A stretch of 63,041 nucleotides of DNA, counting the filler, from Thermodesulfobacteriota bacterium (GTDB lineage Bacteria > DASVDK01), in the NCBI GenBank assembly GCA_036381125.1. It is 6 parts of 6 records of this genome, joined end to end, with 100 filler letters (N's around TTAATTAATTAA, not from the genome) between each part and the next. Parts side by side here need not be neighbours in the genome. Positions count along the whole stretch, not along the records: positions 1 to 9,320 come from DASVDK010000047.1; 5 more parts are not named here. One strand, 5' to 3'. Under the pieces are notes generated by a model. It was not told where the DNA came from. It did no database searches and worked only from the letters and a program-made list of their open reading frames with translations. This document shows, one piece after another, positions 1-654 of this stretch. Numbering within the stretch: the first letter of the stretch is position 1; every line of letters begins with the position of its first letter. Position numbers and translations under genes: made by a program.

Positions 1-568
1 CGCCCTGGTGACCCGCCGCCGGCAGCTGCGCGAGATGCTCGACGCCGAGCAGAACCGGCTGCGCCTGGCCCCCCCGACGCTGCACCGCGACCTCCAGCTG
101 CATATCGACTGGCTGCGCCGGCAGCTGAAGGACCTCGACCGCCAGCTCACCCACACCCTGCGCCAGAGCCCGCGGTGGCGGCCCCTGGTGGCCCTGCTGG
201 CCAGTGTGCCGGGCGTGGGCCCGGTGCTCACCGCCACGCTCCTGGCCGAGCTACCCGAGCTGGGGCGGCTGTCGCGCCGGCAACTGGCCGCGCTGGTCGG
301 CGTGGCCCCCTTCAACCGCGACAGCGGCACCCACCGGGGGCCGCGGCGCTGTTGGGGGGGCCGGGCGGCGGTGCGCACGGTGCTCTACATGGCCACGCTC
401 GTGGCCACGCGCTACAACCCCGTCATCCGCGCCCTCTACGCGCGGCTGCGCGCGGCGGGCAAGCTGAAGAAGGTCGCCCTGACCGCCTGCATGCGCAAAC
501 TGCTCATCATCCTCAACGCCCTGGTGAAGACCGGCCGCCCCTGGCAGCCGGCCCTCCCTCAGGCTTGA
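1..568 (+). CDS. IS110-family transposase/recombinase, C-terminal part (5' end outside window)
   Basis: Contains [23 protein letters not shown] (catalytic Ser region), [13 protein letters not shown] and [12 protein letters not shown], typical of the IS110/IS116/IS902 C-terminal domain. Confidence 0.93.
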
Positions 569-585
569 CACTCAAGACAGATGCT
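1..585 (+). mobile_element. IS110-family insertion sequence, right part; predicted right end at CT 584-585
   Basis: Short right end TTGACActcaagacagatgCT follows the transposase stop and directly abuts the first CTGACCCC repeat unit; no terminal IR is seen, as expected for this family. Confidence 0.7.
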
Positions 586-654
586 GACCCCAAGGAAAAC
601 GTTGAGGCCTGACCCCAAGGAAAACGTTGAGGCCTGACCCCGCGGGGGTCAGGC
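584..654. repeat. REP-like array: 2 x 25-bp CTGACCCCAAGGAAAACGTTGAGGC plus terminal palindrome GCCTGACCCC-gcg-GGGGTCAGGC
   Basis: Exact units at 584-608 and 609-633; hairpin at 632-654 overlaps the glnD stop codon. Confidence 0.9.

Follow-up and report, generated by a model that had tools for sequence, protein, structure and literature searches.

In an uncultured bacterium of the Thermodesulfobacteriota, one contig of a genome bin opens inside a recombinase gene of the IS110 type, and shortly after the stop codon of this gene a GC-rich tandem repeat begins, which lies next to the end of glnD. The question raised by this locus is whether the element was inserted there at a defined core dinucleotide, by an RNA-guided recombinase for which the repeat provided the target, as a preliminary description of this DNA had proposed. 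The whole stretch analysed here, called the window throughout, is 63,041 nt long. It carries linkers of 44 N + TTAATTAATTAA + 44 N at 9321-9420, 14658-14757, 22092-22191, 50642-50741 and 60614-60713, in which TTAATTAATTAA is a six-frame stop and which join six contigs of a bin. Since the window consists of six joined contigs, distances and synteny across these linkers are not real. The first contig corresponds to 1-9320, with the IS at its edge. The features of the locus, and of a second locus carrying the same repeat, are collected in Table 1.

Table 1. Features of the IS junction and of the repeat, in window coordinates
Feature	Position	Strand	Remarks
IS110-family recombinase gene, 3' part	1..568	+	188 codons plus TGA; truncated by contig edge
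TTGACA, presumed -35 half of circle-junction promoter	565..570	+	contains stop codon 566-568
Non-coding right end	569..583	+	matches ...AAGACAGTTG termini of relatives
Left donor half ACAGATG, putative	last 7 nt of 569..583	+	homology to relatives' ends
CT core dinucleotide, right junction	584..585		CT at both ends of relatives; IS621 core
Right target half GACCCC	586..591	+	retained at two further junctions
25-bp tandem array, 2.3 units	584..641	+	two intact predicted sites GAGGC-CT-GACCCC, 604-616 and 629-641
Hairpin CCTGACCCC-GCG-GGGGTCAGG	633..653		overlaps glnD stop; palindromic part of REP-like element
glnD (PII uridylyltransferase)	649..3369	-	convergent with IS; stop codon 649-651
Second repeat copy, hairpin CCTGACC-GGG-GGTCAGG plus tail GGAAAACGTTGAGA	47513..47543	-	another contig
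Diverged repeat copy, inverted orientation	47644..47668	+	~100 bp from preceding copy

The recombinase gene and the right boundary of the element

The reading frame at 2-568 on the plus strand, whose 5' end is open, codes for 188 residues and ends with TGA at 566-568. Its product matches PF02371 (Transposase_20, the IS116/IS110/IS902 transposase family of Pfam) with an E value of 6.8e-21, and aligns with residues 135-319 of the IS621 transposase 8wt6 (E 4.6e-22, 82 bits, 182 aligned residues). The top PDB sequence matches are the IS621 and ISCro4 (9t56) structures. In the alignment to 8wt6, the Ser of the FNRDSG motif stands opposite the Ser of RRYESG in IS621, and we take this aligned residue to be the catalytic nucleophile. 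The nearest full-length proteins (P0121, P0122 and P0366) count 317 residues, share 90% identity with the window protein over residues 130-317, and carry both PF01548 and PF02371, while P0362, a protein of 188 residues with 100% identity, is evidently the window's own product. The region of the window's gene for the N-terminal DEDD (RuvC-like) domain, PF01548, lies beyond the contig edge, and a tblastn search of the 63-kb window returned no second fragment of the recombinase gene. These protein matches support the assignment of the element to the IS110 group, as an IS621-like member, which had been made in the preliminary description.

The right junction reads ...TTGACACTCAAGACAGATG up to position 583, followed by CT at 584-585 and GACCCC at 586-591, exactly as described previously. 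The right end is short in the window (15 nt between the stop codon and the end of the element, CACTCAAGACAGATG, to base 583), and the left end is long in the relatives. The boundary was fixed by means of these relatives, collected in a protein-seeded scan with one genome per species that gave at least 80 loci with 54-70% identity. A two-end pattern, [CT]TGTAT...ACAGnnR[CT] with a spacing of 1.1-1.3 kb, was present in 59 of the 80 related loci listed; the other 21 fall outside it, partly due to short contigs. The strict right-end pattern TTGACA-N3-AAGACAGTTG was found in 29 of the 80 listed loci, and is followed by CT in 28 of them and by TT in one. Furthermore, in nine out of ten genomes with several copies, the identity between these copies amounts to 97-100% over 1.16-1.25 kb and falls off on both sides, the tenth pair showing 75% identity only. 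The part common to the copies within one genome is edged by CT on each side. Compared with the right-end consensus of the relatives, TTGACACTCAAGACAGATG-CT of the window differs at one position. It is this homology to the relatives' termini that places the probable end of the element at 583 and its core at 584-585; the right boundary and the CT core are supported at the location given to them before, with CT directly after the end motif and divergence of the copies just outside it. CT is also the core dinucleotide of IS621, according to the available text of PMC11208160.

The repeat after glnD and the target site

Tandem Repeats Finder delineates a 25-bp unit, CTGACCCCAAGGAAAACGTTGAGGC, present in 2.3 copies with a 100% match over 584-641. 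Intact unit junctions, GTTGAGGC-CT-GACCCC, are found at 601-616 and 626-641 as had been read, with the IS junction in phase, and the third, partial unit forms the left arm of the hairpin at 633-653. The unit, TTGAGGC-CT-GACCCCAA, is an imperfect palindrome in itself. With regard to the neighbouring gene, the closest named homologue of its product (76% identity) is a GlnD labelled Thermodesulfobacteriota bacterium MAG. The DNA identity of mutS, 72% versus 71%, did not separate the phyla compared, and nor did the protein atlas. In the window as a whole, the repeat comprises four units at two loci. One locus is the array at 592-641, and the other consists of an inverted pair, 47523-47543 (minus strand) and 47644-47664 (plus strand). 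When three mismatches are allowed, the 25-mer unit occurs at these two places only and in none of 100 shuffled sequences, so that chance is an unlikely explanation for the repeat. Shorter motifs show no such behaviour: the 8-mer CTGACCCC occurs 7 times in the window versus 3.2 expected, a number reached by 7 of 100 shuffles and not significant, and the 13-mer GAGGCCTGACCCC with up to two mismatches occurs 9 times versus 6.1 expected, without enrichment.

The hairpins at 633-653 and 47513-47529 are both located directly after stop codons, and the combination of a hairpin plus tail in this position makes the label 'REP-like' a fair one. The region 47500-47690 folds as a long hairpin (z -3.38). 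Of note, the segment 47513-47668, between convergent genes, is an inverted repeat pair around ~100 bp, which could represent either a small non-autonomous element or a REP pair of the BIME type. In certain IS of the DEDD family, insertion takes place at a single position within a repeated terminal sequence, 'GGGG...', and such elements were considered because the other strand of the unit begins with GGGGTCAG and the inverted pair at 47.5 kb encloses ~100 bp. An origin of the GGGGTCAG-type units as a MITE or as ends of a Tn3-type transposon was set aside, given that a single inverted pair was seen and that it lacks flanking direct repeats.

In metagenomic runs X1, X2, X4 and X7, all from mixed communities, several other contigs carry the unit. 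Records 27-29 of X7 harbour it with different flanks, with loose ends at 590, 594, 605 and 626. The summed contig depth over 601-650 exceeds that over glnD, such depth being no copy number. For the proposal that the unit belongs to a repeat family, the evidence of wider dispersal comes from these mixed-community contigs, and within the window the repeat is confined to two loci. A 23-mer of the repeat, with up to three mismatches, had no match in 183 genomes from the order that includes G243, which had given the top-scoring match in a search of 251 genomes from the phylum of G001.

Part of the region 1-1200 of the window is present in 20 runs from 14 studies, and Logan contigs were compared for four runs from four studies. 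The junctions seen there are k-mer contigs from mixed soil communities with ~30 nt of flank visible, and the stretches without contig cover in runs X2 and X4 were left out of the evidence. Record 25 of X7 (1817 nt) matches the window over 1-592 with 12 differences before continuing into unrelated sequence, TGGGGTGACCCCC..., record 22 of X4 is identical over 469-591 and then followed by 77 unlike letters, and record 10 of X2 stops at 591. Both of the further junctions with a visible flank retain CTGACCCC and diverge after it, for which reason the right target half can be regarded as conserved. This evidence, though thin, is consistent, and argues for site-specific insertion beside GACCCC. The right flanks of other copies had been predicted to begin with GACCCC, and both visible ones do (X7 record 25 and X4 record 22).

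One of these two junctions, CT-GACCCCA-TGGGGTGACCCCC, belongs to a different GACCCC palindrome and not to a AAGGAAAACG-type unit; both known right flanks place GACCCC within a palindrome. The feature common to the junctions is CT plus GACCCC, not the whole repeat unit. The idea that the repeat itself is the target is in this way partly borne out, since CT-GACCCC is kept in two junctions, but one of them lies outside a AAGGAAAACG-type unit. For the left target half, the reading TTGAGGC taken from the neighbouring units has about even odds of being correct. When the same procedure was applied to the relative L014, the left half read from the neighbouring repeat was right at six of seven positions. 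In the relatives L020 and L029, only the right half looks like the REP found locally, the left half being unlike it, and a left half read from adjacent repeats can mislead because of such differences. Insertions with only half of the site matching are described in the available part of a 2026 preprint.

Searches for further copies gave the following picture. The exact right-end 27-mer and 22-mer each had no match in metagenome contigs, the 27-mer query spanning two positions that vary between copies. No match to the element was obtained among the viral contigs searched. None of the plasmids covered at least 80% of the query, six records among the matches listed being 67-69% identical, and the best identity in genome contigs searched by protein was 70% among the matches listed. 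A DNA search found no close copy of the element in 251 genomes from the phylum of G001. Samples of 301 genomes from the phyla of G257 and G254 are uninformative, because the glnD match was absent there too. The negative genome searches, for both the element and the repeat, took in the unpublished genomes G218, G076, G217, G047 and G039.

Left ends and junction promoters in the relatives

The recombinase frame of the relatives starts at (F)VGIDVSK, ~190-220 nt into the element, which leaves a left end of ~200 nt. Since the relatives carry a bridge RNA in this left end, the guide RNA of the window's element would lie upstream of the window, where the preliminary description had placed it. The guide search followed the base-pairing rules given in the available text of PMC11208160, and three segments were sought in the left end: one with the sense sequence of the left flank plus CT, one with CT plus the right flank in reverse complement, and one with the right terminus plus CT. 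In the relatives, the order of these segments is constant, with ~25 nt from the first to the second and a further ~43 nt to the third. As a control, the search was anchored on the donor segment and the guide windows were scored against the flanks of their own and of other elements, near-identical-target pairs having been removed from the non-cognate set. Own flanks matched on average at 9.4 of the 13 non-core positions, with 24 of 30 elements scoring at least 9, versus a mean of 5.2 of 13 for non-cognate flanks (n = 844 pairs), of which six scored at least 9. The match between flank and guide is concentrated on ~5 nt beside the core on each side, and the right target guide reads the core plus 5-6 nt.

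The left ends of 27 of the 30 relatives were aligned, and the RNAalifold consensus consists of two modules, in each of which an internal loop separates an outer from an inner stem, with compensatory changes in 18 of 27 consensus pairs. The first internal loop contains the variable, flank-matching segments, and the second contains conserved ACAGTTGC and CAAG segments. The layout of the relatives' left ends is that of the IS621 bridge RNA. Rfam contains no bridge-RNA family, and its sole matches were to sX15.

In other respects, several observations were made on the relatives. The Rfam family sX15 (RF02234, an sRNA of Xanthomonadaceae) matches the bridge-RNA left ends of two Dehalococcoidia IS110 relatives, at L018:3446-3602 (-) and L020:3407-3564 (-), in antisense orientation to the recombinase gene. 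The scores are 59.1 bits, which exceeds the gathering score of 55, and 53.8 bits, and sX15 had no match at the 13 other loci searched. What is annotated as sX15 may represent the opposite strand of an IS110 left-end RNA; the available text of PMC11208160 makes no mention of it. At L047:3366-3401 and L001:3415-3450, the left-end sequence starts with 18-27 nt (CTTGTATC...) that are doubled in tandem before the element, which looks like a trace left by a previous insertion into this very site. Many Chloroflexota relatives (L018, L024, L010, L031, L065 and other Dehalococcoidia loci) are located in one repeat, ...CCGTTCG(T/C)C-CT-GAGC(C/T)(C/T)GTCGAAGG..., with more empty copies nearby; this repeat has the appearance of a REP-like family which serves as a landing site in that phylum. 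The repeat arrays at L012 and L014 are in phase with the CT core, and each of their unit junctions re-creates the target.

The termini of the relatives also carry promoter-like elements. Of 45 distinct relatives, 22 have TTGACA at 13 nt from the right terminus, as does the window's element, and 31 have TATCTT at the matching -10 position, after CT-TG at the left terminus. On the joined circle, the two would be separated by 17 bp. A junction promoter has been described for IS621 (PMC11208160, available text), and the window's element presumably possesses one as well.

Insertion at the CT core: proposed route, rival readings and significance

The IS621 system of E. coli (Durrant et al. 2024, PMC11208160; structures 8wt6-8wt9) resembles the window's element in its two-domain recombinase family, its CT core, its short right end and, judging from the relatives, its long left end, its insertion in REP-type palindromes and the presumed -35 box in the right end. 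The relatives add a left-end RNA with target-binding and donor-binding internal loops, a left guide in the sense of the left flank and a right guide complementary to the right flank. However, the recombinase match is a distant one at the bit score given above, the termini differ (TGTATCTT...ACAGATG), the target in the window is GC-rich and ends in GACCCC, the element comes from a soil lineage that is uncultured, and the effective guides in this clade look like ~5+2 and 2+5 nt. All copies of ISPpu9 and ISPpu10, IS110-family elements of Pseudomonas putida, are reported to lie in one repeated extragenic palindrome, and for ISPpu10 a target stem-loop adds specificity, according to the descriptions available (10.64898/2026.03.19.712850; 10.1101/2025.01.17.633520). 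The known right flanks of the window's element likewise hold GACCCC in a palindrome; that the target hairpin might play a role for this element, as in ISPpu10, is only a lead. By contrast, IS1111-group elements have long right ends carrying the guide RNA (PMC11208160, available text), compared with 15 nt here.

We consider it probable that an IS621-like IS was inserted at the CT core within the REP-like element after glnD, guided by a bridge RNA as in its relatives. This reading is backed here by the family of the recombinase, by the position of the right boundary and of the CT core, by the conservation of the right half of the target and by the architecture of the bridge RNA in the relatives. 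The first contig would begin inside an IS of ~1.17 kb, of which ~590 nt, the left end plus 129 codons, would lie off the contig. The element would have integrated by recombination at the CT core, giving the right junction ...ACAGATG-CT-GACCCC, at a site formed by a REP-like element (AAGGAAAACGTTGAGG tail plus CCTGACCCC...GGGGTCAGG hairpin) just after glnD, the repeat being duplicated in tandem at this locus. If the window's copy is intact and active, it would, by analogy with its relatives, excise as a circle joining the right end, CT and the left end, and the circle junction would create a TTGACA-17 bp-TATCTT promoter, from which a bridge RNA of ~180 nt would be transcribed from the left end. 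One internal loop of this RNA would pair with the donor junction, ACAGATG-CT-TGTAT..., and the other with ~5 nt on each side of the target CT, here possibly ...GAGGC-CT-GACCC(C). The loops of the element's own bridge RNA are predicted by analogy with the relatives, and would match (G)GGGTCAG and ACAGATGC, at positions equivalent to columns 117-129 and 163-174 of the relatives' alignment A1.

It seems quite unlikely to us that the element instead ends at 591/592, CTGACCCC(A) being part of the IS and its identity with the start of the unit secondary. The three contigs that reach the junction are common up to 591 or 592, as a longer IS end would give, but the terminus ...AAGACAG(T/A)TG followed by CT corresponds to the relatives' ends, which were set by comparing copies within genomes. 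Moreover, the 8 nt in question are exactly in phase with the local 25-bp repeat, which occurs IS-free at 47.5 kb, and these 8 common nt equal the core plus the 5-6 nt read by the relatives' right target guide. Even less credit, in fact very little, can be given to an insertion that was not site-specific, or to an assembly artefact at the contig edge, beside an unrelated repeat by chance. It is true that the 9320-nt contig begins within the IS, that the bin is a concatenated one and that such contig ends can be chimeric; yet the IS-CTGACCCC junction is reproduced by independent contigs from three other studies. With just 7 occurrences of CTGACCCC on the two strands of the 63-kb window, it is very unlikely that three junctions would have it in common by chance.

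A further possibility concerns the origin of the tandem units, which might be a by-product of the element's own recombination, through unequal or half-site exchange between neighbouring CT-GACCCC sites. The array begins exactly at the core, at L014:2282-2323 three in-phase 14-bp units start from the right core and each re-creates the target, and half-match recombination is reported in the available part of a 2026 preprint. We nevertheless judge this origin improbable, since arrays abutting the IS are clear in two (L012 and L014) and weak in two (L038 and L039) of 57 relatives, and at L012 the element has a 7-bp CTGAGCC array on either side, which fits insertion into an existing array. Replication slippage accounts for short arrays without a recombinase, and in record 27 of X7 a two-tail array appears to be present next to a different left flank, without an IS. 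It is likewise doubtful, to a high degree, that the array of the window and the 14-bp array of L014 were made or expanded by the bridge recombinase via half-matching CT sites; if so, IS110 elements would multiply their own landing sites.

Insertion of an IS621-like element at the CT core of the REP-like repeat is a new example of the mechanism described in 2024, and not a new mechanism. For the IS110/IS621 family, the targeting of REP sequences, the CT core, the bridge RNAs and the promoters formed at the junction have already been published (PMC11208160, available text), and the understanding of the mechanism is unchanged. At the level of the assembly, the IS explains the break at the start of the window. 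With regard to the family, the locus adds a natural pairing of a bridge recombinase with its target, centred on CT-GACCCC, from an uncultured soil bacterium with 72.8% G+C. The clade of relatives, with invariant ends CT-TGTATCTT...AAGACAGTTG-CT, a length of ~1.17 kb, recombinases of ~315 residues and left ends of ~200 nt, may help in the mining of orthologues.
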